From a virus (Duplodnaviria > Heunggongvirae > Uroviricota > Caudoviricetes): DNA of 64,000 nucleotides. Numbering within the stretch: position 1 is the first letter of the stretch; each line of letters begins with the position of its first letter. The stretch spans positions 1 through 64,000 of IMG/VR virus record IMGVR_UViG_3300044798_000244. One strand, written 5' to 3'. The position numbers and the translations under genes were made by a program. Of the stretch, positions 42,603 through 64,000 are shown piece after piece. Under the pieces are notes generated by a model, which saw nothing but the letters and a program-made list of their open reading frames with translations, was not told the origin of the DNA and made no database searches.

Positions 42603-42605
42603 CTC

Positions 42606-45299: not shown

Positions 45300-45312
45300 C
45301 TCTCAATCCTTT

Positions 45313-46208: not shown

Positions 46209-46223
46209 TTGGTTTTTCCTCTA

Positions 46224-47410: not shown

Positions 47411-47416
47411 ATTTGC

Positions 47417-47638: not shown

Positions 47639-47641
47639 AAA

Positions 47642-47965: not shown

Positions 47966-47996
47966 GATTAAGTTTATCTCCTTAGTTGTTCTACTC

Positions 47997-48236
47997 TTAA
48001 CCTACAACAAGCCGGTAGGCCAGCCTTCTATCATGTTCAATAGAAGCTGATTGCATTAAGATTTCAGCAGCATCAAGGTCTTCTTGAGAAATAGCGGGAT
48101 TCAACGTTAACTTCATGTAAACTGTGACGAGCCCACGTAGAGCGTTAGATACTTGTTCAGGGGTGTATTTAGAATCTCCCATGATGTTCTGAAATGTTAC
48201 CCGCTCAGTACGGAAGTACTCTATGTCTACACTCAT
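47997..48236 (-). CDS. hypothetical small protein
   Basis: 79 aa. Confidence 0.3.
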   Translation of the reverse strand: MSVDIEYFRTERVTFQNIMGDSKYTPEQVSNALRGLVTVYMKLTLNPAISQEDLDAAEILMQSASIEHDRRLAYRLVVG

Positions 48237-48238
48237 CT

Positions 48239-48712
48239 TCAGCTCTTCACAGCAACAATATCTTGTGCATCAACAATACGACACTTCTGGTCATTGTATT
48301 CTACTGGCGTACCACCTTTGGAAACCAGAACAACATCCCCAACTTTGGCCGGCATAAGATTTCTTTTCCGATTGCCTAAGATACGACCAGGGCCCACTGC
48401 TACCACTATAGCTTGAACTGATGTTTGGGACTTGTTTGGAAGAAGAATGCCTCCAGCAGTCTTGGTCTTAAGAGGATCATCTCTCACTATCAGCTTGTCA
48501 CCAAGAGGTCTAATCTTCATTTCTTGATCTCCTCCTTCCCTCTCGTAAGCATCTCGGTCCCACTTCCAAGCACCCTCAACAATCTTCATGTGAGATCCAC
48601 AGTACTGACACTTGTGAACTGAGCCTTCTCTAGTTGCTGTGCAATTCTCTTGAACATCTTGGATACAGCATCTAAGAAGGCCTCCTATGTGGATTGGAAT
48701 CATTTTCTTCAT
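48239..48712 (-). CDS. groES: GroES-family co-chaperonin with an N-terminal zinc-ribbon extension
   Basis: The C-terminal 95 aa, MKIRPLGDKLIVRDDPLKTKTAGGILLPNKSQTSVQAIVVAVGPGRI...VGDVVLVSKGG...DIVAVK, aligns with GroES. N-terminal CCIQ..C..C...CQYCG. Confidence 0.65.
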   Translation of the reverse strand: MKKMIPIHIGGLLRCCIQDVQENCTATREGSVHKCQYCGSHMKIVEGAWKWDRDAYEREGGDQEMKIRPLGDKLIVRDDPLKTKTAGGILLPNKSQTSVQAIVVAVGPGRILGNRKRNLMPAKVGDVVLVSKGGTPVEYNDQKCRIVDAQDIVAVKS

Positions 48713-48951
48713 TGTTGCTGCGTCCCTTTATACAGAAAGCAATACCTGCCAGTGGTGGGGGCGGGAACATACTTGACTAATCCACCCAACGTACCACATC
48801 CGACGCAAACATGAAGCCTGTTCATATCATCTTGGCTGGTAAAGGTCCCACAGTACTTGCACAACCACATCGGAGAATGAAACCAATCCTCCTTAGGATG
48901 CACTTCTTTCGGCCTCGGATACAGAACCTCGTTCGAAAAATTGATATTCAT
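48709..48951 (-). CDS. small zinc-ribbon protein
   Basis: 80 aa with CKYCG...CVGCG. Confidence 0.35.
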   Translation of the reverse strand: MNINFSNEVLYPRPKEVHPKEDWFHSPMWLCKYCGTFTSQDDMNRLHVCVGCGTLGGLVKYVPAPTTGRYCFLYKGTQQQ

Positions 48952-48978
48952 CTTACTACCTTTCTATTGTGTGAATCC

Positions 48979-49173
48979 TTAAGCGGTTTCTCTAGGAGTA
49001 CCCTCTGTAGATCTGTGGGGGTCTTGTTCTTGAAACACCTGATCCATCACCTTCGCTTGTTTGAGGAACGGATCTTGATGGGCGTGTCTCTGTTTATACT
49101 GCTTTGCCACTTCGGAATTAACTCCATGGCAGTGTAGCAATCTAGTGTACTCAGTAATAGACGGTTTTGTCAT
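48979..49173 (-). CDS. hypothetical small protein
   Basis: 64 aa. Confidence 0.25.
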   Translation of the reverse strand: MTKPSITEYTRLLHCHGVNSEVAKQYKQRHAHQDPFLKQAKVMDQVFQEQDPHRSTEGTPRETA

Positions 49174-49280
49174 CTTCGGTTCACCTTTTCAACTAATATC
49201 CAATACTATCATCAAAGGATTCATCTTCACGGAGATCTTCATTATCTTCATCATCAACAAAAATTCCATCATAATTGATT

Positions 49281-49763
49281 TTATCTTTCCCAGCCTTCCC
49301 AGTCTTCATCAAGTTCGGTATCAATGACAATCTTCTCATCATCAGCAGTAATCGTAAAGATTCCGCCCTCTGCTTCGAAGATAAGATGCTGCTTGATATC
49401 AAGAACAGTACCTAGAGCATTTTTCTTGATGAGCTCTTCGGTGATCTTCCACATCAAAGCAGGTACGATTCCAATCACTCCGGCATCAACTGGGTACTTT
49501 CGACCTTGGAGATCCACATACTCACCATCACCATAAGCTGTACTGGCAACTGCAAAAGACTCAATGCACTCACCTATACCATCATCCGTCAAGGTGAACT
49601 GTCCCTCTTCATAGTTGTACTTCTTGCCCCAGATGATCTTGTAGATAGCATCCTGCAGAACGTAGCAAATGTCTCCAAGATAGTACTTGCCTGGACCAAA
49701 TTCAGCTCTCATTATTATCTCCTCCAATGCACCAGCTGTTTTCGTATATTTTCTTGAGTTCAT
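49281..49763 (-). CDS. hypothetical protein
   Basis: 160 aa. Confidence 0.4.
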   Translation of the reverse strand: MNSRKYTKTAGALEEIIMRAEFGPGKYYLGDICYVLQDAIYKIIWGKKYNYEEGQFTLTDDGIGECIESFAVASTAYGDGEYVDLQGRKYPVDAGVIGIVPALMWKITEELIKKNALGTVLDIKQHLIFEAEGGIFTITADDEKIVIDTELDEDWEGWER

Positions 49764-49827
49764 CTTCCTTGAATGTAAGCAAAATCAGACTTATCAGGAT
49801 CCCTAAGGTATCGTCCTTGTCATGCTA

Positions 49828-50346
49828 TTATACTGGTTTATCGTGTTCAGGACCATAAAGAACTGGTATCAGTCCTAGTATATCTTTCAGCTGGTTAAAT
49901 GACACAGGAGTAAAGTTATTAGCATCTACTCCTACATCCCACTGCTTTCCAATTGGAGGAAGTGTACCATGCGAGTGTCCGTACAGCTGCCAGGCTCCGT
50001 GGTGGGCCCTTTCCCAGGTTCTCATTGCGTAGTGGCACACAACCACGAACTGACCTTCTATCATCTTTCTCCACATGAACTTCGATGAATCTGGTAACCA
50101 AAGGTCGTGGCTTCCTTTGATGAAGATATGATTACCGTTGAGTCGGGTAATAGTACTCAAAGCACAAACTGGTTTCTTAAACCAACCGAAGTCTCCAGCA
50201 TGGACTGTGATGTCATTCTTTCCAACTACTCGATTATGATTAGCAATCAAGGTTTCGTTCATCTCTTCTACGGTAGCAAAGGGACGATGACAGTACTCGA
50301 TGATCTTTGCGTGGTCGTAATGCTCATCAGCTGTGAAGAAGTGCAT
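49828..50346 (-). CDS. calcineurin-like metallophosphoesterase
   Basis: GDFG, GNHI and GHSHG motifs in the order typical of the metallophosphoesterase fold. 172 aa. Confidence 0.55.
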   Translation of the reverse strand: MHFFTADEHYDHAKIIEYCHRPFATVEEMNETLIANHNRVVGKNDITVHAGDFGWFKKPVCALSTITRLNGNHIFIKGSHDLWLPDSSKFMWRKMIEGQFVVVCHYAMRTWERAHHGAWQLYGHSHGTLPPIGKQWDVGVDANNFTPVSFNQLKDILGLIPVLYGPEHDKPV

Positions 50347-50355
50347 AATTAGATC

Positions 50356-50535
50356 CTACCAATCTACTAGACCATCTTTAGGACAGTACCACCATATTCC
50401 CCTAACATCAGAGCATATTGCGACCGGAACGATCTTACCGCACTTCGGACAAGGAGCTTCTCCTCGGGCACTGTGTCCATTCTCATTTTCTCGTATATTC
50501 ACTGTATCCTTCGGAAGCATATCTCTTGCGGTCAT
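50356..50535 (-). CDS. 59-aa zinc-ribbon protein, below the 60-aa ORF-track cutoff
   Basis: Hand translation: MTARDMLPKDTVNIRENENGHSARGEAPCPKCGKIVPVAICSDVRGIWWYCPKDGLVDW, with an ATG start. Confidence 0.3.
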   Translation of the reverse strand: MTARDMLPKDTVNIRENENGHSARGEAPCPKCGKIVPVAICSDVRGIWWYCPKDGLVDW

Positions 50536-50548
50536 GTATTATTCTACT

Positions 50549-50725
50549 CTACTTAGAAGGAAATAGCCTTCGGAAATGCTCCCAGGCCCAGATAGAACAT
50601 CTGATTCCGAGATGAGCACGAAAGAAGTTGAATGTACAAGTAGCTACCAATCCATCTACTATCACTAGTGGTCCCCAGCCCAACCAGTTGCAGACGAAGA
50701 ACAGAATATAGCAAAGAGTTTTCAT
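50549..50725 (-). CDS. 58-aa single-pass membrane protein with an ATG start. This is an alternative to the TTG-start frame ORF 50553..50747.
   Basis: MKTLCYILFFVCNWLGWGPLVIVDGLVATCTFNFFRAH..., preceded by a hairpin at 50749..50785. Confidence 0.25.
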   Translation of the reverse strand: MKTLCYILFFVCNWLGWGPLVIVDGLVATCTFNFFRAHLGIRCSIWAWEHFRRLFPSK

Positions 50726-50816
50726 GCGTTGGTCTCCTCAACAACAAGAAGAGGCGGTAGGTTGATAAGGCCTCCGCCTCTTGCTCTCTGAATGGGCTTG
50801 TAGCCCAAATGTATTG

Positions 50817-51020
50817 TTACTCCGAACCAAGGAACAACTTGGTCAGGATGGGGTGCTTCTGTCGCCAGTTCAAAGTAAGATGGCAATCAAAACTCTCAGG
50901 ACAATTCCGACCAGCACAGCTATTACCACAGGTGTAGCAGACGTGATTTCTCAAGAAGAAGTTTCTAATCTTTCTACGCATGTGAGATCTCCTCTGGTTT
51001 CTGAGGGTGGGAGCTGTCAT
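50817..51020 (-). CDS. 67-aa basic Cys-rich protein. It is the C-terminal part of track ORF 50817..51434, whose upstream portion is a shadow.
   Basis: MTAPTLRNQRRSHMRRKIRNFFLRNHVCYTCGNSCAGRNCPESFDCH..., starting 44 nt after the stop of 51064..51483. Confidence 0.25.
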   Translation of the reverse strand: MTAPTLRNQRRSHMRRKIRNFFLRNHVCYTCGNSCAGRNCPESFDCHLTLNWRQKHPILTKLFLGSE

Positions 51021-51063
51021 CGGTGATCTCCTCGGCCCCCACCTTACATCTCCATCATCTTGT

Positions 51064-51483
51064 CTACGCAGCCACCGGCACTGCCATTCTCTTCTTTGTA
51101 TCGGCCAAGATCGTCTGGGCCGAGCTCTTGGCGGTCTTCTCATCGTAGCCACCTTCGGTGATATACTTCTGGGCAATAGCGTTGATGATTGTCTCATCCA
51201 AAGCTTGGTCCGTCGGATTGACAAGCAAGCTTCGGCACAGCTTGACCACACCTTTGACCGGCTTGCGACGCTCGTTCTTCTCCTGCTCCTTAACGATGTC
51301 GAGAAGGGTGACCGGCTCGGTCGACACAACGACCTCATTCGGGGACACGAGCTGGAGGACATCTGTGATATGAGCGATGCCCTGCTCCTTGGTTCGGAAC
51401 TTCTTGATCTGCTTGTCAGAGCTGACACTGGCATTGTACAGTGCCGTGAGCTCGACGATGGTCATGTCGTTCAGGTTCTTCAT
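51064..51483 (-). CDS. hypothetical protein
   Basis: 139 aa with good protein-like composition. The overlapping Arg/Ser-rich frame is rejected. Confidence 0.4.
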   Translation of the reverse strand: MKNLNDMTIVELTALYNASVSSDKQIKKFRTKEQGIAHITDVLQLVSPNEVVVSTEPVTLLDIVKEQEKNERRKPVKGVVKLCRSLLVNPTDQALDETIINAIAQKYITEGGYDEKTAKSSAQTILADTKKRMAVPVAA

Positions 51484-51589
51484 CTTTGTCTCTCCTATTT
51501 AGTTGCTTGTTGGTTTCGACTTATGTTGTTGATTATACTTATAGTATAAAGTCTACTACCAACAATGCCAACTAGAAAAGAGAAAAATG

Positions 51590-53599
51590 TCAAAAATCTT
51601 TTTCCTCCTCAATCGGCTCAGCCTTATCACCTCTTACCTCAGCCAAAATCTTCTGCAAGCCAGCTTCATCCTTCACAGTAGCCACCTTGGCCTCCCCAAC
51701 AAGGTTCTTCCAGGTCAGGGCATCTCTTTTAGTAAACCAGAGAACCTTCTTCATGTCTACTACGGTAGTCTTGTCGTGTGTAGACACAGCTTCAAAGATG
51801 TTAGCTTTCTTCGCTGCTTTCTCACCCTTCTTATCAATAATCGGTAGGTAGGAGGTCAGGTCTAAGTTCTCTATCGGGCGTCTGTAGAGCTTACGCCATG
51901 GGTAGATACTCTCTTGTACCTTACTTGCCACCACCGGTTCAGGACGAAGCCGCACAGGTCGTCTAGCAGCAGGAGCTTGGCCAGGGGTCGCCTCTTCGGG
52001 CTTCCGTTCACCACCCTTCGCTCCTTCAGCTTCCACTTGACCACCAGCAACCTGTGCAGCTTGAGCTCTCCGTAGCATCTCTTCTTCCTTTTCGATAACA
52101 TCGGGGCTCTTGTAGAAGTCCTCAATGTTAAAATCTTCGAGTTTCAAGATCTTGTCATTATAATACGCCCAGACCTTTACCAAATCAATCTTCCGACCAG
52201 CAACCATCTTTAGAGTCTTGAGGAGTTGTGTAAATGTTCGCATACCAGCTTCGAGACCTTTCCTAAGCTGCTCTTCCTCTGCTGCTGATGTCTCAGCCAT
52301 GTGAACTTGGAAGAGGTTCGGATCAGGATCCATTCCTTTATAGGCCAGATGAATCTGACAGAGTCTCGTAACCCCGGCAATTATTGCTCGCTGTATCCTT
52401 CTTGCTGATCTACTAAATCGAATGTCTAATTTACCAATAGATTCACTTCCTAAGGACCCTGTAGCCTCCGATACATATGCTCCTCCAAGTGCTGGAGGCG
52501 TAGCCAATGAGAACGCCAGCTGCTGCCTCAGGTTATCTACATCTACGATCCATCTGATATCTGCTTCCCCACCAATCTTCTCATACTTCAGATCATCACT
52601 CGATCCCCACACCGGAACGAAAATATCTTCAATCACTGTTAGAGGGTTCTGTTTGGAATCAAAGCTTGGGTTGTCTGATCCGGTATTGATACTTCGAGCG
52701 TGTGTAATCAGAGCTGCGTATTGATCCATTAAGGCAGACACAGCTTCAGAGTTGTTCATGTCCACCTTCATTTTCCAGATGTACCGGATGATGCCCCTCG
52801 TCACACGGGCTAACAAGAGGGAGTCTTCTGCCAGTCTCAATCGCTTATACGCTGGGAGGGCGTTAACTGGAATACCTGTGCCATATCTCGTGGTGAGCTG
52901 TTTGGTATCTGCTCCTGTAATAAGATGGATCTGTCGCATCTCTGTATAGCCAGGATCATTAAAACGAGGTCGTTTCTTCTTCGCTCCTAGTAATCGGAAG
53001 TGCACATATCGCCACGGTGGAATCAGGTCAGCTTTATCACTATCATTCGCTTGTCCTTGTGGGCTATGGTAGAATCCAACCAGAACGCCATTATAATCCA
53101 CTCTACTGATAGTCATCGGATGCATACTGTCATCTACATTTACTACACCCAGACCCGGAGCACCCACGACCTCCATGAACAGATCTCCATAGGCTGCTGT
53201 ACTATACGCCCAGTCGTGGATCTTCTCTTCTACTCCAATACGGTCGATGAGGTTTGATAGCTCTTGCTGATACGTAGCACTATCACTTGAGACCCAAACT
53301 GTAGAGTTTCTGATTGGATTATATGTTGATGCAACATTGGCGTACAATTCAAGGGCGCTGCCCACAAACCAATGCTCAAGAGATCTTTCTATTTCACTAT
53401 ACATGTTCCATCTATCGTAGCTGACCTGGATATCTGCTTCGATAGAATGTTGTACCATTGAAGCTGTTACGCCTGCTTTTCTTAACAAGGCGAGAGCTTC
53501 TTTACTCCACTTCTGATCACCCTTAAACGTATCCGCTGGGATCATTGGAGGTCGTGGACTAATGTCAGGAAGGAGTTGACGAAATGGGTTTGTTGCCAT
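51590..53599 (-). CDS. portal protein (gp20-like)
   Basis: 669 aa, the largest ORF near the terminase genes. It precedes the head-morphogenesis genes. Acidic, helix-rich C-terminus. The call rests on context and size. Confidence 0.5.
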   Translation of the reverse strand: MATNPFRQLLPDISPRPPMIPADTFKGDQKWSKEALALLRKAGVTASMVQHSIEADIQVSYDRWNMYSEIERSLEHWFVGSALELYANVASTYNPIRNSTVWVSSDSATYQQELSNLIDRIGVEEKIHDWAYSTAAYGDLFMEVVGAPGLGVVNVDDSMHPMTISRVDYNGVLVGFYHSPQGQANDSDKADLIPPWRYVHFRLLGAKKKRPRFNDPGYTEMRQIHLITGADTKQLTTRYGTGIPVNALPAYKRLRLAEDSLLLARVTRGIIRYIWKMKVDMNNSEAVSALMDQYAALITHARSINTGSDNPSFDSKQNPLTVIEDIFVPVWGSSDDLKYEKIGGEADIRWIVDVDNLRQQLAFSLATPPALGGAYVSEATGSLGSESIGKLDIRFSRSARRIQRAIIAGVTRLCQIHLAYKGMDPDPNLFQVHMAETSAAEEEQLRKGLEAGMRTFTQLLKTLKMVAGRKIDLVKVWAYYNDKILKLEDFNIEDFYKSPDVIEKEEEMLRRAQAAQVAGGQVEAEGAKGGERKPEEATPGQAPAARRPVRLRPEPVVASKVQESIYPWRKLYRRPIENLDLTSYLPIIDKKGEKAAKKANIFEAVSTHDKTTVVDMKKVLWFTKRDALTWKNLVGEAKVATVKDEAGLQKILAEVRGDKAEPIEEEKDF

Positions 53600-53887
53600 T
53601 GTGAGTGAGTTTCCCTTCTCTTCTATTTTATTTTATTTTATTTCTCTTGGGCTTACATACTTAGAGGACTCCTCAAGTCATATTTTAGTATAATCTTAGA
53701 GACCTCTGTATATAAATAAAGTACGTTGACTTGACTTCGGGAAGAGTTATGTAGATTTGGTTGGTTTTTATCTAATAAGATGGTGATCTGCTATTTCTTT
53801 TGAGAAAGCATCTTCTCTTTCAAGTGCCCAGTTGATTGCATCCCGAGTCGCCTCAATCGCACTTAGGCCAGGTGTGAGTTGTCTTCA

Positions 53888-54226
53888 TTATTCTACCTCA
53901 TCTAAACATTCGTCCACTAGAGAAATTTCTCCGGTAGCTCTGATTATCAAGATATGTTCTACATTTCTCTTGGTTCGAACCACCACTACCAGAAGCGGAG
54001 GGCTAAAAGATATTGTACGGATAGACCATCCAGCTACTGGAGGATGCGTTCCAGTGGAAAGACAATCAAGGAGATACTCCAGAGCTCGAACTGTTTCGCC
54101 CATCTCAGAGTGGGTAACAATGCTCCCTAGAAAAGAACTAAAGAGAGCACTATTCACCGTGAGAAGTGCTATATCATCATACAAGTCGAAGAGTTCTTCT
54201 TTGGAGAAAGGCATTGTTCTAATCAT
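53888..54226 (-). CDS. hypothetical protein
   Basis: 112 aa. Preferred over the overlapping Ser/Arg-rich plus ORF 53832..54245. Confidence 0.3.
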   Translation of the reverse strand: MIRTMPFSKEELFDLYDDIALLTVNSALFSSFLGSIVTHSEMGETVRALEYLLDCLSTGTHPPVAGWSIRTISFSPPLLVVVVRTKRNVEHILIIRATGEISLVDECLDEVE

Positions 54227-54587
54227 TCAGTTTGATGAGTTTTAGACTTGGCTTTCCAGGGGTGGGCTTCAAGGGCTCTTGCTCTTCAGGTTTGGGGCCA
54301 ATAGCGATCTCTTCGTTCTGCATCTTCCACAGAGCCATGTCCTTCGTACAATCGACCAGAATAGCTGGGCCAGCGAACTGAAGCTGAGCTCCAGGCTTAC
54401 CTAGAGGGTTACCATCAGGACCAGAAAGATCTGTTGGAATCGTAGCTGGAGCAACGAAGCAGATTAAGTCAACATTGATAGGGACGTCCTTGATCACCAT
54501 CACAGAAATTCCATTCTGCTTAGTCTGTTGAATATTGACAATGTCGAAGTTGACCCATCTCATCTTGCTTTCTCCTCTACTTAGCAT
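54219..54587 (-). CDS. hypothetical protein
   Basis: 122 aa. Confidence 0.35.
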   Translation of the reverse strand: MLSRGESKMRWVNFDIVNIQQTKQNGISVMVIKDVPINVDLICFVAPATIPTDLSGPDGNPLGKPGAQLQFAGPAILVDCTKDMALWKMQNEEIAIGPKPEEQEPLKPTPGKPSLKLIKLND

Positions 54588-54666
54588 TAGTATTTACGTT
54601 AGGTGTGGTGAAAGCTGAAGAGGTTACCATAAGCAACGTTGCAACTTCACCACACCTTACACATCA

Positions 54667-55476
54667 TTATACTGCTTCTGGCCTCAACCTTTCCATTGTG
54701 TTATGATATTCCCGAACACAATTTCCACAATACTTGCATCCACTCTTGCCCTTCTCACCTTCAATCTTGCCACATGAATAGACCAGTGGGTTGTCCTCAT
54801 ACCGGGCCATGCTCTTTCGCCAGGCATCAGTTGTAATGGCCCAGTACTCATTAAGCGTTCGCTTTCGAAAGATGTAGCCCATAACTACCTCATCAGGATA
54901 GCCTTTAAGTATTGCCTCTGGTGTTTTGTGATAAGCCATGAAGGTCAGGACCACTGGAACAGGCACATCTCTATGTGTATAGTATTCTACAGCTCTATCA
55001 CACAAATCGAGATTCCAGAGATTTGTACGGAATCGAACGAACATGAGATTAGGAGGAACATCCACTTTGTGAAAATCCACATCCGTCATCTTTCCAGGAT
55101 TGAGAGTCAGTACGACCGGGGCCTGGGCGTAGTCAACTGTTTCGTCGTGCCCCGACCATGTGCGACAGGTAACGATTGGGAAATCGAGATTAGGAATCGC
55201 TGTATTGTAGAACTTGTGCTGGTAGTTCTCGGTTGCATCAAGAACTAACTTCTTCTGCACATTCGAATCATGTCCATCATTAACTCTTATAATAGCAGTT
55301 GTATTTTTCGGAGGCATGTTGGGCAGATTGTCAAACAGAGGTTCAAGATAAGACCTCCCCGATTGGAAGAAGCAATCTTCACAGTTGTTAGGGCATACTC
55401 CGGTCTGCGGAATCGCACACAGGATACCACTGCCTTTGGTTTTAGGATTTTCGATGTACATATTACTACCTTTCAC
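54667..55476 (-). CDS. radical-SAM-like protein (CxxxCxxC) with an extra C-terminal Cys cluster
   Basis: GSGILCAIPQTGVCPNNCEDCFF has a Gly-rich stretch followed by CxxxCxxC, the layout seen in QueE/NrdG-type activases. C-terminal CGKIEGEKGKSGCKYCGNC. Confidence 0.4.
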   Translation of the reverse strand: MKGSNMYIENPKTKGSGILCAIPQTGVCPNNCEDCFFQSGRSYLEPLFDNLPNMPPKNTTAIIRVNDGHDSNVQKKLVLDATENYQHKFYNTAIPNLDFPIVTCRTWSGHDETVDYAQAPVVLTLNPGKMTDVDFHKVDVPPNLMFVRFRTNLWNLDLCDRAVEYYTHRDVPVPVVLTFMAYHKTPEAILKGYPDEVVMGYIFRKRTLNEYWAITTDAWRKSMARYEDNPLVYSCGKIEGEKGKSGCKYCGNCVREYHNTMERLRPEAV

Positions 55477-56192
55477 TCAAAGTTTGGGTTGATCCAATTA
55501 ACAATCCACTCTTCCTGATCTTTTATCGTTCGGTTTCTGTTATCAACAATCTGGTCAAATAGAACAGGATTTTTTAACCATGTAGCATGCATATCCTGGA
55601 TCTGAGTCTTCTGCTCTGTTGTAAGCATCTCAGGCCTTATAGCACGGAAGATATTATTCGTATTAAGATCCCACCGCAGCAAGGTAGCCCACATCGCTGT
55701 GTCTAAAGCTGTCTCACTTTCATGCTGATCTTCAAACTCGAAAGGTGCCCGCAACAACCGGACAACCTTACCACCATGCTCCTGAATATATCGAAGCTCA
55801 TTGGGAAACCGAACATCTGGTGTGAGGACTAAAGGAACAAGCGTCTGTTCTGGCTTCAGAGGATAAAGAACACTTTTTAGAGATTTTCCATAAGCATTGA
55901 TCCAGCAATCACCATAAGTATGCCGAAACCAATCAGTGCCTACTAACTGAAGCAGTTGACGCACGGTTTTACCACAAGGCAAGACAGTGTTCTTCTTCTC
56001 ATCAGAGTCCAGATTATCAACACGCCAATCCCACTCTGGTGGAACGAAGCAGTCAATAACGATTTCTTTGAGCTTGTCAGCGAACCGGAGCACCTTCCAA
56101 CATGGAAGCTGGGTTTTCAAGATATTAACGAATGTACTCTTCCCACCCTGCTTCTTCGCTGACACCCCTATGATGTTCATCTGTGAATCCAT
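55473..56192 (-). CDS. deoxynucleoside monophosphate kinase (T4 gp1 family)
   Basis: P-loop GVSAKKQGGKST, like T4 GVKRSGKDTT. VLTPDVRFPNE matches T4 VPDTRQDHE. 239 aa, against 241 aa in T4. Confidence 0.55.
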   Translation of the reverse strand: MDSQMNIIGVSAKKQGGKSTFVNILKTQLPCWKVLRFADKLKEIVIDCFVPPEWDWRVDNLDSDEKKNTVLPCGKTVRQLLQLVGTDWFRHTYGDCWINAYGKSLKSVLYPLKPEQTLVPLVLTPDVRFPNELRYIQEHGGKVVRLLRAPFEFEDQHESETALDTAMWATLLRWDLNTNNIFRAIRPEMLTTEQKTQIQDMHATWLKNPVLFDQIVDNRNRTIKDQEEWIVNWINPNFE

Positions 56193-56377
56193 CTCCTAAT
56201 CCTTATTCTGAAATTGAACAACTTGTAGCTGAGCTTCTTCAAATACTTCGTGTACCAGGACTTACTCTTCTCAGCCTCAACCTGTGCAGTGAACTTCTGA
56301 CGGTACATCTCAGCAAATAATTGTCTTAGATTACTAAAGGAGCTGTCAAGTTGATGTTTCTGTTTTCGGTTTTTCAT
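56177..56377 (-). CDS. hypothetical small basic protein
   Basis: 66 aa. Confidence 0.25.
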   Translation of the reverse strand: MKNRKQKHQLDSSFSNLRQLFAEMYRQKFTAQVEAEKSKSWYTKYLKKLSYKLFNFRIRIRRWIHR

Positions 56378-56573
56378 CTTTCACTCCACCTCTTGCAATA
56401 TCTCTTCCAGGCCAGTCCTTTCCGCAGAAAATCACTCCGCCTCCCTTGCCTATCAATCGTCTCAGCATCTTGAATCCGCAGTTAGGGCACTTCTTCAACA
56501 GTTCTGCTGTGATAGACTGAAAAGTTTCGAATTTGTGCTGACACGCATCACAACAATAATCATAATGTGGCAT
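56346..56573 (-). CDS. FmdB-family zinc-ribbon protein
   Basis: MPHYDYCCDACQHKFETFQS...CPNCG is the FmdB signature. Confidence 0.55.
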   Translation of the reverse strand: MPHYDYCCDACQHKFETFQSITAELLKKCPNCGFKMLRRLIGKGGGVIFCGKDWPGRDIARGGVKDEKPKTETST

Positions 56574-56578
56574 ATACT

Positions 56579-57190
56579 CTACTCAATGCAATCCCCAGGC
56601 TCTAAATTCAACATTCGAATCCGATGCTTAATTCGAAGAAGGCTGTCATGTATTCTACTGCTAATAGTATCACTGCACAACCCCCGCATGGCCGCAATCT
56701 CATTCAACGGAAGCTTCTGAATTTGATGAAGAATGATAAGCTCGAGCTCCTCCTGAGATATCACGTTATCATTGAGCATTCTTTTGAACACTCCATCGAG
56801 ACACTCAGAAGTATTCTCTTGACACAAACCTTCTTCTGGTGGCACCCAGATCTCTTCAAGTTCTGAAGCATTTATTACTCTCGGATGGGGAAAAGCTTGC
56901 AGGATCTCATTCTTGATATATGAAACAAGCCAAGCTGGAATTTTCTCAGGATCTTCTTTAGTAGGAATTCGGAAGGTAGCTTTGTAGATACCTACAGCAC
57001 CAGTGTGATACAAACTATCAAGGGCTTCGTTTCTAAGATGTTTATAATGATGTCGAAGCTGATGAACTACGTGCAAAATCAGCAAATGGGTTTTTGTCAA
57101 GATCTTTTTGAACATCTCATCATCTTGTGTTCTCTGATACTCAGATACAAGATCTCTCAATACCTCATTTGATATTCTCCGAGCGTCCAT
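56579..57190 (-). CDS. RNA polymerase sigma factor, sigma-70 family (regions 2 and 4)
   Basis: Region-2-like LDSLYHTGAVGIYKATFRI. Region-4 helix-turn-helix ISQEELELIILHQIQKLPLNEIAAMRGLCSDTISSRIHDSLLRIKHRI. Confidence 0.55.
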   Translation of the reverse strand: MDARRISNEVLRDLVSEYQRTQDDEMFKKILTKTHLLILHVVHQLRHHYKHLRNEALDSLYHTGAVGIYKATFRIPTKEDPEKIPAWLVSYIKNEILQAFPHPRVINASELEEIWVPPEEGLCQENTSECLDGVFKRMLNDNVISQEELELIILHQIQKLPLNEIAAMRGLCSDTISSRIHDSLLRIKHRIRMLNLEPGDCIE

Positions 57191-57240
57191 TTCTAAATCC
57201 TTTGGTGATATGAAGTTATAAACCTTTGTAGTATCATATC

Positions 57241-57270
57241 ATTATACTCACACCTACTAGCCCTGGTGAA
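57241..57270 (-). promoter_or_regulatory. possible sigma-70-type promoter for the sigma factor gene
   Basis: Minus-strand sense TTCACC, 18 nt, TATAAT, about 50 nt upstream of ATG at 57190. AAAGGA ribosome-binding site. Confidence 0.25.
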
Positions 57271-59296
57271 TGCCCCGCATACGTTTGAGCATGGCTTCGT
57301 ACCTTTTTAGATGCTCTGATTGAAGTTGCAAAGAAGATTCCACAGGTTTTTTCAACAGATCAATCCCTGCTACAGATGAGAGCATCCTGGAAATCTCATC
57401 CTCATCTTTTGGCAAGGACTTCCTCATCAATTCTGTTAGCACCTCTATATCAGGGGGAACCATACATCGCTCTATAGCCAAACTAACTGATCCAGCTACT
57501 GCATCCGCAACATCCTTTGATCCCCTCATCACTATCTCTCTAGTATTTCCATCTTCGAGAAACTCCAGCTCAGCCACCTCATCAGGGTGATCTATTTTAT
57601 TCTTGTCTGGATCATCTTCAAGGTTCTTAAGCTCAAAGTGTAAGTACGGATTGAGAGGAGTTGACCAAAGACCCTCAAACACTCTGTTTCTGAAGTCTCT
57701 ATACCGGTTAGGACTCTTGTCCATTGATAGGTCGCTACAGACCAGCCCAGCCCTCTCAAGAATCTGTTTATCGCTCTCTGTAGCAATAGACAAATCGTAG
57801 GACACTTCGTTGATGTTGAATCCATGAACTACCTTTAGATCCAGAATCAACTTGCGTACCTTGTGAAGAGGTATCCTGTCACCTGGATGACCCCGTATCC
57901 TCATTGCAAAGTCCGTGTAAGCCACAGCTACTTTGTCTACTCGGAATGAACCATCGCTTTCCTCAGCAGTCCTCCTAGCCCAACCAGAGATGCATGACAT
58001 AGCCAGTCCAAGAGAATCACCATCACCTGAGAAGGCGAAGTCCACATGTAGGAACCTTGGAACGTTCCGAGGGATCTTAATAACAGAGAGATCCAGAAAA
58101 TCGAGCAGGTTCACCTCATCATTGAGTCCAGTCTCAATTGTCATCAACTTGACAGGATTTGGATCACTTGTATAACACTTTACCAAGGCACTCTCAGATG
58201 GAAACAACTTCGTCCTTCGAATACTCGAAGTGGAAATACCTGCAATGTCTCTTAGCGCCCCTATAATATCTTTTACAAAAGGCTCAGAGTACTCAACAGG
58301 AACCTCAATAATCTGAAATCCATCCAGAAGCGCTTTCTTCAGATCCTCTTCAGTATCCAGAACCCTTGGAGGATTATGAACATCTCCAATACTGACCTTG
58401 AATTTCTTTCCACAGTAGTGACTGGAGGGTTTAGCATCCCAAATCGGAATATCAACAATCACGACACTCTTAGAATTTTTGTATTTTGCAATGAAAGCGT
58501 TAAGAAATGCCAAACGATCTTGCTTCGAAGCTACCAAAAAGAATCGACCAATAGTCTCCCCATGAATTACAAACCGAGTCTCCAGTCGACGTCGGGCATT
58601 TTCATAGGCCTGAAGAACTTTTTGCCGCTGTATATTGGTTGCTGCGGGGGAATCAACTTCATCCATCAAAGCTATAATAACATCTTCGCCTTGCGATCCG
58701 AAGCCTTGAACAAACGGGGAAGCAAAAGTGTACTTAATAAGAGAAAATTCAACTCGAGGGTGAAGTTCAGAACCCACAACATTCCCATGGGCTCTAAACC
58801 AGGGAGAAGCTAAGAGATGACTTTGAAACAAGGCATACGATCGACTCTCACTTTCGCTCTTGGTGAGGTTGAAAAACACAATGGACATTTGTCCACCAGA
58901 TGTTAGCCCGAAGTGAGCCCAAGGATCTTTCAGGCAAAGTATCCGGCACAAAGTATACAGAGCCCCATAAACCGCCGCTCTGGTTTTTCCTGTTCCTATG
59001 GCACCTGTATACACGTACAGGAATTTACTATCTTCTTTAGCTACTACATCTAGAGAATCTTTCCAAACTGGATAAACTACTTTTCCTTCACCAGTAAGAT
59101 TACCAAGATATTGCGGACTACGAAGAAATTCCTCCATAGTAGGGGGCTTCTCTTTGTAATTCAAAGAGATAGTATAGTCAAGATAGTTCTTGATCATGCC
59201 TTGACTATTTGGAGCTGTCTTCGCCATTGGGTGTGCTTTTTTCTGAACTTTCGAACGTTGCTTCAGTTGCTCCCTCTGCAAGCTTCCGAAGATCAT
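57257..59296 (-). CDS. gp17: terminase large subunit (gp17-like). The true start is probably the internal Met near 59230 or 59200.
   Basis: Walker A VYTGAIGTGKT. Walker B-like IIALMDEVD. C-terminal acidic nuclease-type region. 679 aa. Confidence 0.7.
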   Translation of the reverse strand: MIFGSLQREQLKQRSKVQKKAHPMAKTAPNSQGMIKNYLDYTISLNYKEKPPTMEEFLRSPQYLGNLTGEGKVVYPVWKDSLDVVAKEDSKFLYVYTGAIGTGKTRAAVYGALYTLCRILCLKDPWAHFGLTSGGQMSIVFFNLTKSESESRSYALFQSHLLASPWFRAHGNVVGSELHPRVEFSLIKYTFASPFVQGFGSQGEDVIIALMDEVDSPAATNIQRQKVLQAYENARRRLETRFVIHGETIGRFFLVASKQDRLAFLNAFIAKYKNSKSVVIVDIPIWDAKPSSHYCGKKFKVSIGDVHNPPRVLDTEEDLKKALLDGFQIIEVPVEYSEPFVKDIIGALRDIAGISTSSIRRTKLFPSESALVKCYTSDPNPVKLMTIETGLNDEVNLLDFLDLSVIKIPRNVPRFLHVDFAFSGDGDSLGLAMSCISGWARRTAEESDGSFRVDKVAVAYTDFAMRIRGHPGDRIPLHKVRKLILDLKVVHGFNINEVSYDLSIATESDKQILERAGLVCSDLSMDKSPNRYRDFRNRVFEGLWSTPLNPYLHFELKNLEDDPDKNKIDHPDEVAELEFLEDGNTREIVMRGSKDVADAVAGSVSLAIERCMVPPDIEVLTELMRKSLPKDEDEISRMLSSVAGIDLLKKPVESSLQLQSEHLKRYEAMLKRMRGIHQG

Positions 59297-59954: not shown

Positions 59955-60341
59955 TCAGAACTCCACTACTCCACTAATATCTGCCACACCACAGAGTACG
60001 ATAGAATACTCTTTTCCATCTGGGGCGGTTTCGATATGCCGCCAGGGGACTGTCTGATCATATTTGACGTAAATGCCAGGCACTAGGTCTTTCGGAACGC
60101 TACGCCACCTTCCCTTATCAGTGAAGAACCCCGGCCCCACTGCCAAGAGAATCCCAATACCTTGTCCATACTCCTGACGAAGCTTCTCCGGTATCTCAAT
60201 CACACCACCAGGAATATACTTCTCCGGAGGAGGGCATGGAAAGATAAACACTCGATCAGCCGTTGGCCGCCAAGGAAACCTCACCTTGCCCCGAACATGG
60301 AACGGTGTTAGTTGCTTCATTGAAAACCTCAATCTTTGCAT
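59955..60341 (-). CDS. groES: GroES-family co-chaperonin. The track ORF extends to 60416, overlapping the QueD gene, so an internal Met start is assumed.
   Basis: DRVFIFPCPPPEKYIPGGVIEIP...GILLAVGPGFFTDKG...VPGIYVKYDQ...DGKEYSIVLCGVADISGVVE aligns along the length of GroES (DRVIVKR..SAGGIVL..VLAVGNG..VGDIVIF..EEVLIM.E.DILA). Confidence 0.55.
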   Translation of the reverse strand: MQRLRFSMKQLTPFHVRGKVRFPWRPTADRVFIFPCPPPEKYIPGGVIEIPEKLRQEYGQGIGILLAVGPGFFTDKGRWRSVPKDLVPGIYVKYDQTVPWRHIETAPDGKEYSIVLCGVADISGVVEF

Positions 60342-60673
60342 TCGTAGGTAGCAATGTTTCCTTCGGACTCCTGAACATCCACACGATAGCAGGTTGGTAT
60401 CTTGAGACAGATCCATTCAGCGATGTTTTCCGCTGTAGGATTGACATCCAGAACATCATTCAGATACTTATGATCAAGGGCATCTACTACAACCTCTTTG
60501 ATTACTGTAAAGTCGACCACCATTCCATTGTTAGCCTTGACCTCTTCATCTGTGGCTTGGCAGTACGTAGTGACTATCCAAGAGTGGCCGTGAAGATTTT
60601 GGCACTTACTTCTGTAAGGCAGATCTAACTTATGTGCCCCCGCTATTTCTATTCGTTTCTGAATTCGGAACAT
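60329..60673 (-). CDS. queD: 6-carboxy-5,6,7,8-tetrahydropterin synthase QueD (PTPS family)
   Basis: AHKL...CQNLHGHSW (CxxxHGH zinc site). DHKYLNDV and ESEGNIATYE align with E. coli QueD. Confidence 0.7.
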   Translation of the reverse strand: MFRIQKRIEIAGAHKLDLPYRSKCQNLHGHSWIVTTYCQATDEEVKANNGMVVDFTVIKEVVVDALDHKYLNDVLDVNPTAENIAEWICLKIPTCYRVDVQESEGNIATYECKD

Positions 60674-60685
60674 CTTTCTCTCCTA

Positions 60686-61258
60686 TTACTTTTCATCTGG
60701 TACTTCATAGATTTCACTAAGATGCCTATACATTTCTCCACAGCCCATTCCACATCCGGCCAAGAACTTATCACCTGTGTATCTGAAGCCTGCGATGGTG
60801 GGGCCAAGTTCAGCAACCCCTGTCGTATTGATTTTGTGAACCAGGGCTGCTGTCCTCAAGTGGGCTGGCTTCATCAGACTGATAATCTCGAAGGCCTTCA
60901 TCATCGTCGCTCCAGTGTCCCAAATATCATCGATGATCCAGACATTTGAGTCCTGAACATCTTCAATAGATAAGTCAAGAGTTGAGGTAACTTTCATCTG
61001 ATCGGGTTGGCGACCATTTCCATAGCTGGAGATTCCCATGTGACCAATTCGAACATCTTTAACGTAGTTATCAAGATGATGAAGAATTTGGTATGCAGTC
61101 CAAAGACCCCCTTTGAGAATAGCAATAAGAACCAGAGTGCCAGGTATCTTTCCTACAATTCTACCAAGCACTTCTCCTGCGATGTTGAGACGGAGATTTC
61201 GAATCGCTTCCTCTACATCTATTTGAGAGTAAAGAAGACTCCAATCTTGTGTTTTCAT
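60686..61258 (-). CDS. purine phosphoribosyltransferase (type I phosphoribosyltransferase, HPRT/XGPRT-like)
   Basis: PRPP-binding motif VWIIDDIWDTGATM. Upstream LIAILKGG loop. 190 aa. Confidence 0.6.
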   Translation of the reverse strand: MKTQDWSLLYSQIDVEEAIRNLRLNIAGEVLGRIVGKIPGTLVLIAILKGGLWTAYQILHHLDNYVKDVRIGHMGISSYGNGRQPDQMKVTSTLDLSIEDVQDSNVWIIDDIWDTGATMMKAFEIISLMKPAHLRTAALVHKINTTGVAELGPTIAGFRYTGDKFLAGCGMGCGEMYRHLSEIYEVPDEK

Positions 61259-61869
61259 CTAATCTTCTCCACTGTGCTTGTTCCATTGGTAATAATCACA
61301 CGGTATGACACATCTGCAATAGAAGCGAGCTCTTGCTCATGCGTTACCAGAATGAATTGCACACCAAGACGTTCCGAGAGGCTCTTGATCATCACACCAA
61401 TCGCCTCAAGGCGTCCTGAATCCACATTTTTCAGGGGCTCATCAAAGATAAGAACTGGTTCAGTCCTGTTAACTTGTAGTGCCCAGAAGGTAACCCTGAG
61501 AACAAATGAGCAGACATCAACTACCCCACCCCCAAGTTCATCTTTCAGTGAATGTTGATAGTCGTCGATGACGACCCACATCTGGGCCTCGGCCTGGCTT
61601 CGGCTCACTGTACTCTCAATCTCGAATGAGTAATTATCACCAAAGACGTAGTGAAGAGCTTCAGTGACCAGAGCTTCAACCACACCTTTGAACTCTGTCT
61701 GGGCCAGAACACCTACAGTGGTAATCACATTCTGGGCAGATACTAGGTTAGCGAGCTTCTCTTTAAGGTTCAGGAGCTCGTTCTGACTCGCTGCCAGTTG
61801 TGATTCCAGGAGCTGTTTCTTGGTTCTGGTCTCCACCAGAAACGTTCTGTACTTGCTCAATGTTGTCAT
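61255..61869 (-). CDS. Rad50/SbcC-like ABC ATPase, C-terminal half only
   Basis: Coiled-coil lead-in. Signature-like KDELGGG. Walker B / D-loop PVLIFDEPLKNVD. H-loop QFILVTHEQEL. There is no Walker A anywhere in this ORF. Confidence 0.55.
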   Translation of the reverse strand: MTTLSKYRTFLVETRTKKQLLESQLAASQNELLNLKEKLANLVSAQNVITTVGVLAQTEFKGVVEALVTEALHYVFGDNYSFEIESTVSRSQAEAQMWVVIDDYQHSLKDELGGGVVDVCSFVLRVTFWALQVNRTEPVLIFDEPLKNVDSGRLEAIGVMIKSLSERLGVQFILVTHEQELASIADVSYRVIITNGTSTVEKIR

Positions 61870-62146
61870 CTACTGGTACCGGAACATATAATTCGATTTT
61901 GGTTCCTATCTGGAGCTTCGCGACAGGAAACGTCAGTGGTTGGGCAGGCGACATATTTACATGGTCGTGACCTTTTCCATCGAAGGTCTTCCACATCTTG
62001 AAGCCGGTGATGTCATCACTCCCCAGGACAGCATAGCCAGCAAGCACCAGCCTAGTGTGCAATGGCTGTTCTTTCCCCGTGCTCACCCCGGGCTTGGCAT
62101 GATGAACCTTTCGGCGGTGATGGTTACGGTTTTTGGGCTGAGCCAT
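61763..62146 (-). CDS. hypothetical His/Arg-rich protein, or a frame fragment of a disrupted Rad50 gene
   Basis: 127-aa ORF overlapping the start of 61255..61869 in another frame. It would leave a 255-nt non-coding gap if not coding. Confidence 0.25.
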   Translation of the reverse strand: MAQPKNRNHHRRKVHHAKPGVSTGKEQPLHTRLVLAGYAVLGSDDITGFKMWKTFDGKGHDHVNMSPAQPLTFPVAKLQIGTKIELYVPVPVDDNIEQVQNVSGGDQNQETAPGITTGSESERAPEP

Positions 62147-62411
62147 TCAAACCTCCTGTGCTTGGCGCTATAGCTATTTGTATAATCTGCTCCAACTCTG
62201 TATTGAGGGCTTGAAGACCTTGTTCGGTCTGGGCGATCTCCTCGCCTATTGTATTGAGCCTCTCTACTGCGGCCTCGACAGTATCTAATTCGAATCCTTG
62301 TTTCAGTTGAGTCCTCAGCTGGTCCTCTTGACCCTGACGTCTCTGCTCGCGATTCCGGAGGTCTTGTATTTGCTGTTCCTTACGACGAAGATCAGCTACT
62401 ATATCACTCAC
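62124..62411 (-). CDS. coiled-coil protein, possibly a Rad50 coiled-coil fragment
   Basis: 95 aa of continuous heptad coiled coil (LRRKEQQIQDLRNREQRRQGQEDQLRTQLKQ...). ATGA-type overlap with the Mre11 gene. Confidence 0.3.
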   Translation of the reverse strand: MSDIVADLRRKEQQIQDLRNREQRRQGQEDQLRTQLKQGFELDTVEAAVERLNTIGEEIAQTEQGLQALNTELEQIIQIAIAPSTGGLNGSAQKP

Positions 62412-63325
62412 TTTATAGCCTCCTCAAGAGCACTATCAAGTTCATCTTTCACACCTTGACCAACATTCATCTTGTCCATAACACGAAGCAAAATACTCTT
62501 CCAACCTTCTGATGCTCCTCTCGAGTTGAGCATCTTTTCTATGAATCTCTCGAGCACATTTGTATTCTTCACTTCAGGTGATGACAAATCGAACACGGCC
62601 TCGGCCGGCTCGATCTGCAACTCATATGTCTTCACTTGAAGATCCGGGATGCTGACAACACACACTGAAGGTTTCAGATCAAACTTCAGGTCGGTCATTG
62701 TCTGTCTAACAATGGCTCCAACATTGATAATCACTCGACCATTCCATCGATCAACAAATGGGTAGTGATAATCTCCAACTAACACCAAATTATAGTCCTG
62801 ATGAACTCGAAGAAATGCTCGGGGCTCTTCAAGTACTTGTCCCGGGAATAGCGGACGATTTCCAATCATCCGATGGGTGACTAAAATGTTAAAGTCGTCC
62901 CGGCTCTGCACCTTAGGAATCATCTCACCAAACGAAGCTCCATAGGCACGAACTCCTGGCATGATTACTATGGAATAGTGATCTAAGATCTGCACCACAC
63001 CAGCAGACTCAAGAACCCGGATAGGACTATTTGGCAGTGTATTAACTGAGTGTCCTGCTACATCATGTTGACCCCAACAAGATAAAATAGGACTTTTCTT
63101 CGTTCGTAAGTACTCAATCAGTGTAGCCTTCACCCGATTAGCTACCGTCGGAGAATCAAAGAAATCTCCAGCCTGGAGGACAGCTTGACATCCTTCAGAG
63201 TCAAAGATTCCATACGCCTGATCCAGCTTGTTCATCTGGGTAGCGAAGTAGTTGTCTCTTCGTCTTTTTGGTGCTACATTGGTGAAGTGAGTATCACCTA
63301 GGAGACCAATCTTGATTGATTCCAT
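62408..63325 (-). CDS. Mre11/SbcD-type nuclease (gp47-like metallophosphoesterase)
   Basis: Motifs in canonical order: GDTHF (I), GDFFD (II), GQHD (III), ILVTHR (IV), GDYHY (V). Confidence 0.65.
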   Translation of the reverse strand: MESIKIGLLGDTHFTNVAPKRRRDNYFATQMNKLDQAYGIFDSEGCQAVLQAGDFFDSPTVANRVKATLIEYLRTKKSPILSCWGQHDVAGHSVNTLPNSPIRVLESAGVVQILDHYSIVIMPGVRAYGASFGEMIPKVQSRDDFNILVTHRMIGNRPLFPGQVLEEPRAFLRVHQDYNLVLVGDYHYPFVDRWNGRVIINVGAIVRQTMTDLKFDLKPSVCVVSIPDLQVKTYELQIEPAEAVFDLSSPEVKNTNVLERFIEKMLNSRGASEGWKSILLRVMDKMNVGQGVKDELDSALEEAIK

Positions 63326-63654
63326 GCTGCGAGATCCTTGTTAAGTGCATGTATGAACAGCATGTATGATTCGTCTATCATCATCTGATACAGCTTTTCA
63401 TCGTTCCTGTCCTTCGCCAGCCAGAGATTAGTACGATCGGAAACGAACTTCTGAAACAACTCCACAGTACCAGGTCGAACACATTCAAGGTGAACAACCT
63501 CTTCGCCATGCATAAGAACAGCGATATCTGCTCCTGAGATACCAAGCCGACTGCATTCCCGGCAACACATGTCTGCTTCCCGGGCCTGCTGTGGATCCCA
63601 ATGTCGGGGTGGTGTGATCTTCTGAGTCTTGACAGGATTTGCTTCGCTTCTCAT
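63298..63654 (-). CDS. hypothetical protein
   Basis: 118 aa. ATGA overlap with the upstream ORF. Confidence 0.35.
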   Translation of the reverse strand: MRSEANPVKTQKITPPRHWDPQQAREADMCCRECSRLGISGADIAVLMHGEEVVHLECVRPGTVELFQKFVSDRTNLWLAKDRNDEKLYQMMIDESYMLFIHALNKDLAAWNQSRLVS

Positions 63655-64000
63655 TTGCTGTGCTCCAGTAGATGCTTCTGTGTTACTTTTGTTAGAGGAC
63701 TACTGCACCAAGGACACGTAGTAAGCTGAAATAGAAGTTTTTGCTTTTCCTGCTCCATCTTACTCACTGAATCATCTGCCCCTTGACCTTCATTCACGCA
63801 CTTTCTAAGTGCTTCTACAATCGTATACAGCTTCTGAAGGTTGGTGCACAGTGTATTATACTGTTGGACCAGCTGTTCTCTTCTACTTAGCACCTCGTCA
63901 AGATTGGCTGGGAACACAACCTTATTCGCACAAGCAGACCTCAATCCTTCAATGAGAGCTTGGAGAGCATGGTACAAGCTTCTTTGTTGCAAGAAAGCTT
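63651..64000 (-). CDS. hypothetical protein, 5'-partial, with a C-terminal CPWC
   Basis: The frame stays open to the window edge. The listed start is a TTG, so the N-terminus lies beyond 64000. Confidence 0.35.
   Translation of the reverse strand, partial: AFLQQRSLYHALQALIEGLRSACANKVVFPANLDEVLSRREQLVQQYNTLCTNLQKLYTIVEALRKCVNEGQGADDSVSKMEQEKQKLLFQLTTCPWCSSPLTKVTQKHLLEHSK

Follow-up and report, generated by a model that had tools for sequence, protein, structure and literature searches.

The 64,000-nucleotide (nt) stretch of a Caudoviricetes genome analyzed here (the window; positions 1 to 64,000 of IMG/VR record IMGVR_UViG_3300044798_000244) very probably carries an intact Rad50 that is naturally split, its ATPase head and zinc hook being encoded upstream of the gene for an Mre11-type nuclease. 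The locus is best explained as an intact recombination nuclease module, belonging to a T4-like myophage, that makes its Rad50 in pieces wrapped around mre11. On the minus strand the genes follow one another in the order Rad50 N-terminal half (N-half), a 118-amino-acid (aa) insert, Mre11, a small protein that we call B, a 127-aa protein that we call X, and Rad50 C-terminal half (C-half) (Table 1). The original prediction, made from the letters of the window, had described the last four of these open reading frames (ORFs) as an Mre11 nuclease followed by a Rad50 that lacks both its Walker-A head and its zinc hook and is spread over three overlapping frames. The positions, lengths, and minus-strand orientation that it gave for the four ORFs were borne out. 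The supposed absence of head and hook was an error, because the hook lies in the window and the head just beyond its edge, and the middle one of the three overlapping frames does not encode a Rad50 piece. Among the explanations offered at the time, a split Rad50 whose head is encoded elsewhere is the one that holds, with head and hook just upstream of Mre11 and partly outside the window.

The N-half ORF is cut by the window end at 64000 and finishes with ...TTCPWCSSPLTKVTQKHLLEHSK; its zinc-hook motif falls in the very last part of this ORF, whose frame stays open to the edge. A JGI contig from the same phage (L011), identical to the window across their 724-nt overlap, completes the N-half as a protein of 368 aa. 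The gene would start near 64757 in window coordinates, and the head is encoded about 0.7 kb past the edge; a search for a Rad50 N-terminal Walker-A fragment, suggested with the original prediction, ends in this gene upstream of Mre11. In the completed protein, Walker A reads GQSNAGKT at residue 29 and the hook reads CPWC at residue 348, giving a layout of ATPase lobe I (Walker A and Q-loop), a coiled-coil region of about 200 residues, and a CPxC hook placed almost at the C terminus. Pfam AAA_23 matches the N-half at 3e-14, AAA_15 also matches, and a profile of 63 N-half sequences finds Rad50 structures as its best matches in the PDB (5e-18). Across these 63 sequences, G29, G34, and K35 of Walker A are invariant and Q123 and Q125 are at least 90% conserved; in the hook, C348 and C351 are invariant and P349 is at least 90% conserved. 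A single-sequence search of the hook region against the PDB gave no Rad50 match, and the family profile alone succeeded: when the profile of the last 75 aa was compared with the whole PDB, the two top matches were the Pyrococcus furiosus Rad50 hooks 1L8D (4.4e-7) and 6ZFF (1.9e-6), with the family consensus CPlCGqeL sitting on CPVCGREL of these structures. On this sequence evidence we take the CPxC of the N-half as a Rad50-type zinc hook, with predicted zinc binding. The distance from start to hook falls into three discrete classes of about 293, 340, and 390 residues (census loci L013 to L092), which suggests that blocks of about 50 residues have been inserted in the ascending arm.

The C-half supplies the other side of the head. 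It consists of an N-terminal helix of about 50 aa and ATPase lobe II with a signature-like GGG, Walker B, the D-loop region, and the H-loop. The alignment to phrog_15167 ("ATPase," a 211-position profile) covers it from one end to the other (4e-29), and the PDB entries that match it best are C-terminal chains of P. furiosus Rad50 expressed on their own (2.8e-5). A HMMER search of 1.84 billion representatives returned 3,125 relatives at an E value of ≤1e-3 and 1,674 clusters at an E value of ≤1e-10, and the best 150 relatives are all 136 to 295 aa long and align end to end. Cellular genomes, scanned for proteins close to the C-half, yielded nothing useful. The ORF cannot be extended upstream because a stop codon directly precedes its ATG in the same frame, and by all sequence indications it is a complete protein of 204 aa rather than a fragment. 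Within the family, Walker B residues D143 and E144 are invariant, H177 and Q171 are at least 90% conserved, and R125 and the GGG are nearly invariant. The Walker B, D-loop, and H-loop (H177) that had been read in this ORF stand, as does the lack of Walker A, but the Rad50 signature has to be qualified: the window sequence is LGGG where the canonical motif is LSGGE/Q. This departure is shared by the family, whose signature is xGGG, not SGGE/Q, with the glycines present in 56 to 57 of 63 sequences and the canonical serine absent.

The nuclease between the two halves matches the calcineurin-like phosphoesterase families Metallophos_2 (1e-9) and Metallophos (1e-6) in Pfam. An AlphaFold2 model built with 77 homologues has a predicted local distance difference test score (pLDDT) of 92 and a predicted TM-score (pTM) of 0.80. 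In a Foldseek search with this model, the top 50 PDB matches are all Mre11 or SbcD, with human Mre11 best at 6.8e-12 and query-normalized TM-scores of 0.53 to 0.59, as befits a calcineurin-like nuclease fold with its capping domain. The family profile also matches the sequence of P. furiosus Mre11 (4e-9), aligning GQHD to GNHD and GDYH to GHIH. The earlier claim that all five Mre11 motifs are present is right about motifs I, II, and IV, which are canonical, and has to be qualified for motifs III (GQHD, not GNHD) and V (GDYH, not GHxH), which are noncanonical throughout the family. In the 77-sequence alignment, the G, H, and D of GQHD and the G and H of GDYH are invariant or at least 90% conserved, and Q86, D185, and Y186 are at least 90% conserved. 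Two metal-ligand positions are thus altered (N to Q and H to D), and the substituted residues could still bind metal. The C-terminal helices at residues 255 to 304 of the model would occupy the usual place of the Rad50-binding helices.

The split is not peculiar to this phage. A degenerate-pattern scan of IMG/VR with alignment of the C-half confirmed at least 501 relatives among the 599 matched stretches listed, and the best 80 loci were examined with hidden Markov models (HMMs) for four parts: N-half, Mre11, B, and C-half. All four parts occur in this constant order in 72 of the 80 loci, and most of the others are cut by contig ends. Every complete N-half (71 of 71) carries a CxxC motif, mostly CPxC, 6 to 26 residues from its C terminus; neither an unsplit member nor an N-half fused to a C-half occurs in the 80 loci. 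Typical sizes of N-half, Mre11, B, and C-half are 361, about 300, 84, and 207 aa, respectively. Among the 72 loci, gaps of more than 150 nt separate N-half from Mre11 in 45, Mre11 from B in 24, and B from C-half in 29, reaching up to about 4 kb, and the ORFs inserted at the module junctions form 155 clusters. B directly adjoins the C-half, without an X gene, in 43 of the 72 loci, and unrelated genes lie between them in others.

Several cultured phages carry the module. In Microcystis phage Mvi-JY20 the four module genes are each annotated "hypothetical." In Bacillus phage 0305phi8-36 (L009, NC_009760, 1468..5504), gp8 is an Mre11 fused to an N-half that ends with CPTC, followed by gp7 (B), gp6 (unassigned), and gp5 (C-half). 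In Bacillus phage vB_BboS-125 (L094, 3992..6864), gp32 is an N-half ending with CPLC, gp33 is an AP2-domain protein, gp34 is B, and gp35 is the C-half, so that the N-half with its terminal hook is followed directly by an AP2-domain gene and not by mre11. Genes with this domain often go together with homing endonucleases. The arrangement is a hint that insertion of mobile genes created the split sites or is drawn to them, and a past mobile-element insertion is a plausible origin because vB_BboS-125 has its AP2-domain gene at the post-hook split. The past endonuclease insertion that had been proposed together with degradation of Rad50 is therefore credible as history, whereas the present state is a conserved functional architecture and not decay.

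Other loci show variations of the arrangement. Microbacterium phage Magritte has an N-half-like gp155 (L093, 4001..5053) in which no CxxC occurs anywhere, and its C-half is gp2 (L010, 1..934, annotated "exonuclease"), about 40 kb from gp155 across the genome ends. The pieces of the module can thus be dispersed, and a hook-less variant of split Rad50 may exist. A second, unrelated calcineurin-like phosphoesterase of about 190 to 217 aa is inserted between N-half and Mre11 in five loci (e.g., L016, 4069..4647), and in one locus a homologue of this phosphoesterase lies in the gap between Mre11 and B. An NAD-dependent epimerase/dehydratase-like gene of about 310 aa lies within the module in three loci, twice between Mre11 and B and once between B and C-half.

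Comparison with a relative shows that the ORFs of the window are maintained as they stand. The related locus L002, at 76 to 79% protein identity, shares all six ORFs and their frames, start codons are conserved, and there are zero indels between the two sequences from 61211 to 63460. Wherever an ORF is annotated, substitutions concentrate at the third positions of its codons, and in the overlap of X and C-half this signal is dominated by the C-half frame. The ratio of nonsynonymous to synonymous substitution rates (dN/dS) is 0.087 for Mre11, 0.18 for B, 0.21 for the nonoverlapping core of X, and 0.10 for the C-half; the DNA of the X core gives 1.7 and 1.1 in its other two frames, which contain stop codons, and the overlapping tail of X gives 0.61, all values being qualitative because dS is near saturation. 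Purifying selection acts on every module ORF in the frame annotated for it. Over the aligned stretch, about 61200 to 62500, a second assembly (Logan SRR35360736) reproduces the window sequence without a difference.

Adjoining reading frames share an ATGA or GTGA or else overlap by 23, 28, or 107 nt: the GTG start of B overlaps the stop codon of Mre11 (GTGA), the C-half stop overlaps the start of the next gene (ATGA), the 118-aa ORF overlaps the Mre11 start by 28 nt, and the ORFs of B, X, and C-half occupy three frames with overlaps of 23 and 107 nt. The stop/start overlaps between module genes suggest translational coupling. All window genes are on the minus strand, and the GC skew is steadily negative. 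No further Rad50-like ORF was found within the 64-kb window, and the DNA of the region from 61000 to 64000 had no match among GenBank phages.

Three other explanations were weighed against the split Rad50. The one that survives best, although we consider it improbable, is a different structural maintenance of chromosomes (SMC) or ATP-binding cassette (ABC)-type conflict system, Lamassu-like or anti-defence, that shares the Rad50-like ATPase fold and a phosphoesterase. The PADLOC models for LmuB score on a par with Rad50 models, at 5e-12 for the N-half and 3e-5 for the C-half, and the AriA, GajA, and PtuA models also match the P-loop region. However, PADLOC found no LmuA, LmuC, or other defence-partner matches among the module ORFs, the nuclease has an Mre11 fold, the hook profile specifically picks out the Rad50 hook, and the best PDB sequence matches are Rad50. 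The module also has RecA and a gp32-like single-stranded DNA-binding protein (SSB) as neighbours, the phage being a lytic T4-like myophage, and its conservation extends very widely over viral contigs.

Programmed ribosomal frameshifting, which would fuse B, X, and C-half into one long Rad50 C-terminal polypeptide, had also been raised at the outset and is very unlikely. The overlapping frames and an A-rich stretch (CCCAAAAAC) within the B/X overlap would fit such a mechanism, but each of B, X, and C-half has its own start codon, conserved in L002, and the C-half frame has its stop directly before the ATG. In many loci B and C-half adjoin without X, and in others unrelated genes set the pieces up to about 4 kb apart. 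X homologues elsewhere end ahead of the C-half start (e.g., L014), and the overlapping tail of X in the window is under relaxed constraint.

A Rad50 gene decayed by frameshifts, or an indel artefact of assembly or sequencing that left three ORFs as remnants of one gene, is hardly credible: three consecutive ORFs in three overlapping frames and a gene caller that omitted the 127-aa ORF on the Logan contig might have suggested it, but the second assembly is identical, L002 at 76% identity shows no indels and a coding periodicity that tracks each frame, dN/dS is 0.09 to 0.21 in every annotated frame, the C-half belongs to a stand-alone family of 1,674 clusters with the best 150 members all of about 200 aa, the split is kept in 72 of 80 loci even with pieces kilobases apart, and the middle ORF has homologues of its own and no Rad50 similarity. 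Decay, sequencing error, and programmed frameshifting are unsupported because the split order is conserved, the frames are selected, and indels are absent.

B, which had been described as a pure coiled-coil ORF and is indeed a helical protein, is conserved at about 85 aa and lies between Mre11 and C-half in 77 of the 80 loci, and it recurs in both Bacillus phages. We lean, by a modest degree, toward B being the descending coiled-coil arm of the split Rad50. On the 611-position LmuB model, the N-half matches positions 6 to 349 and the C-half 434 to 590, leaving a gap of about 84 aa that equals the size of B. On ASRP, the N-half matches 9 to 313 and B matches 365 to 443 at a weak E value of 0.004. 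In addition, a natural C-half (P0083 in L012), located directly after an Mre11 gene, bears an N-terminal extension the size of B; an hhalign comparison of a small B profile with this N terminus was colinear but not significant (E value of 0.066), and the B HMM gave no match to it.

Colinearity of B with the descending hook helix was also probed with a junction-spanning profile, whose matches we discount. A joint profile of the N-half tail and B matched 6ZFF at 37.2 bits and 1L8D at 35.3 bits across the junction, but a control with B reversed scored higher than the true joint profile, at 44.5 and 42.8 bits (6ZFF and 1L8D, respectively), so the match reflects coiled-coil composition only. Besides this control, several results weigh against a Rad50 assembled from these pieces. 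The B profile found generic coiled coils only in the PDB, with no significant similarity to Rad50 coiled coils. The length of the N-half arm does not covary with the lengths of B and C-half (Spearman coefficients of 0.18, 0.01, and 0.12), and the simple arm-pairing picture may be incomplete because the N-half length classes are unmatched by B or C-half. Pfam Rad50_zn_hook matches just 14 of the 63 N-halves, all below threshold and with a best E value of 0.007. Finally, with a GGG signature that lacks the serine and two substituted Mre11 metal ligands, activity of the complex is an assumption.

X is a different kind of protein. It has a basic N-terminal tail and a beta-rich core of about 55 aa, and its last 35 codons overlap the C-half gene. 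Only 3 close homologues were found among 5.8 billion proteins. Of the 72 loci, 18 encode homologues of the core, each time between B and C-half, as proteins of 74 to 127 aa with a basic N-terminal tail that usually stop before the C-half begins. X has no Rad50, Pfam, or PDB similarity, including when a 17-member family profile was compared with PDB and Pfam, and its AlphaFold model from 4 sequences was unusable (pLDDT of 40). X is a separate, clade-specific gene and not a Rad50 piece, and its 35-codon tail over the C-half start is weakly constrained read-through. The 118-aa ORF on the other side of Mre11 shows coding periodicity in its own frame; its homologue is found only in the closest relative (L002/L013), so it is lineage specific, and searches of family libraries (Pfam, PHROG, and PADLOC among them) gave no match. 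It contains a Cys-rich stretch (CCRECS...HLEC). Like X, it is a lineage-specific gene that was inserted at a junction tolerant of insertions.

We infer that the module forms an Mre11-Rad50-like complex from the co-location of the genes in one operon with constant order, the two-chain PDB relatives, and the colinearity of the pieces. Assembly of the pieces would be noncovalent, on the pattern of the solved two-chain head structures of archaeal Rad50, for which N and C halves were produced separately. Close to the hook, the ascending N-half helix would run antiparallel to B, and close to the head it would do the same with the helix at the start of the C-half, so that the two ATPase lobes would meet. 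One Zn2+ would be shared between two hooks, and Mre11 would attach through its C-terminal helices to the base of the coiled coil. By analogy with gp46/gp47 of T4, the complex might process DNA ends for RecA-dependent recombination and replication.

It is conceivable, if somewhat short of an even chance, that a large, mostly uncultured group of phages uses a Rad50 of three polypeptides (an N-half ending at the hook, B, and C-half) whose descending arm is held only noncovalently. If true, Mre11-Rad50 function would not need a chain that is covalently continuous through hook and arm, and the noncovalent arm might be an openable gate or a regulated assembly point at which clade-specific X-like proteins dock.

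The surroundings of the module place it in a T4-like myophage (Table 1). On the contig that completes the N-half, a RecA gene lies two genes upstream of it, and L002 has a gp32-like SSB gene upstream. The rest of the window (3263..59296) is a structural module of T4-like myovirus type, in which several large ORFs are without a Pfam match. Because RecA, a gp32-like SSB, and T4-like structural genes are nearby, the module likely does the job of gp46/gp47 in recombination-dependent replication. Directly downstream of the C-half, with an ATGA overlap, is a phosphoribosyltransferase-like gene (190 aa; Pribosyltran, 1.4e-13), and the next gene is QueD/6-pyruvoyl-tetrahydropterin-synthase-like (114 aa; 4.5e-24); the two genes together occupy 60329..61258 on the minus strand. 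The same pair is found downstream of the C-half in L002 and may serve nucleotide or 7-deazaguanine metabolism.

Table 1. Coordinates of the split Rad50 module and of other landmark genes in the 64,000-nt window
Feature	Position	Strand	Remarks
Rad50 N-half, 3' part	63651..64000	-	C-terminal 116 codons, frame open to window edge
Zinc-hook motif CPWC	63705..63716	-	17 residues ahead of N-half stop codon; from translation
118-aa insert ORF, between N-half and Mre11	63298..63654	-	Coding periodicity in own frame
Mre11/SbcD-type nuclease, 305 aa	62408..63325	-	Pfam, profile, AlphaFold model
Mre11 motif I	63287..63298	-	
Mre11 motif II	63155..63169	-	
Mre11 motif III (GQHD)	63062..63073	-	
Mre11 motif IV	62870..62881	-	
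Mre11 motif V (GDYH)	62765..62776	-	
B, 95-aa two-helix protein, GTG start	62124..62411	-	
X, 127-aa clade-specific small gene	61763..62146	-	
Rad50 C-half, 204 aa	61255..61869	-	phrog_15167, PDB, family alignment
C-half signature-like LGGG	61525..61536	-	
C-half Walker B (VLIFDE)	61438..61455	-	
C-half H-loop (QFILVTH)	61339..61359	-	
Large terminase-like ATPase	57257..59296	-	Judged from Walker A and size
gp20-like portal	51590..53599	-	
Prohead protease domain	31356..34007	-	
Tail sheath	14558..16177	-	
Baseplate J	3263..4540	-	

How the coiled coils and hook of Rad50 relay ATP-driven changes to Mre11 is still debated. A natural and widespread Rad50 that ends just past the hook, its return arm presumably being supplied by separate small proteins, offers a ready-made system for asking which covalent links and which parts of the arm matter, as well as how the complex loads onto DNA. 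Current annotations call the pieces of the module "exonuclease," "ATPase," "chromosome segregation ATPase," or "hypothetical," and with such labels a phage can look as if it had no complete Rad50. We found no description of a naturally split Rad50 or SbcC in the open-access literature, and a prior description elsewhere is possible; the module is apparently an undescribed, widespread multi-piece variant of the phage Mre11-Rad50 machine.

Compared with known systems, the module has the parts of T4 gp46/gp47 and of SbcC/SbcD: an ABC head with Walker A, Q-loop, Walker B, D-loop, and H-loop, a coiled coil, a CPxC hook, an Mre11-fold nuclease in the same operon, and recombination genes nearby (a RecA/UvsX-like recombinase and a gp32-like SSB). 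Unlike in those systems, the phage Rad50 chain stops 6 to 26 residues past the hook, with the remainder on proteins of about 85 and 205 aa, mre11 lies inside the split, the signature is xGGG, and Mre11 motifs III and V are GQHD and GDxH. Since lobes and coiled coil are not on a single polypeptide, the phage module is a variant of Rad50/SbcC and not a canonical member. LmuB of Lamassu and the archaeal ASRP, short SMC/Rad50-like proteins of about 600 aa, are colinear with the phage halves and similar in total size (about 650 aa for the three phage pieces). However, they are single polypeptides of cellular genomes with other partners, and equivalents of LmuA and LmuC are absent from the phage module.

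A structural parallel is offered by the two-chain Rad50 structures in the PDB (e.g., 1F2T, 1II8, and 3QKR), in which the N and C ATPase halves are likewise separate and which are the best PDB matches of both phage halves. Those structures were made from truncated laboratory constructs that lack the hook and most of the coiled coil, whereas the phage split is natural, keeps the full ascending arm and hook, and has a third piece. Viral fusions of Mre11 and Rad50 have been described (PMC3175470; bioRxiv 10.64898/2026.07.21.739742), and gp8 of 0305phi8-36 belongs to the same family as the module studied here, although in the window phage Mre11 and N-half are unfused. The preprint catalogues viral Mre11-Rad50 fusions and two-gene systems, and a term search of it brought up no mention of the split. 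Yoshida et al. 2011 (PMC3175470) reported that, in the Mre11/Rad50 fusion of 0305phi8-36, one segment of the P-loop NTPase was "not observed." This segment is the separate gene gp5, preceded by gp7 (B), and the split explains the "missing" ATPase segment of that fusion.

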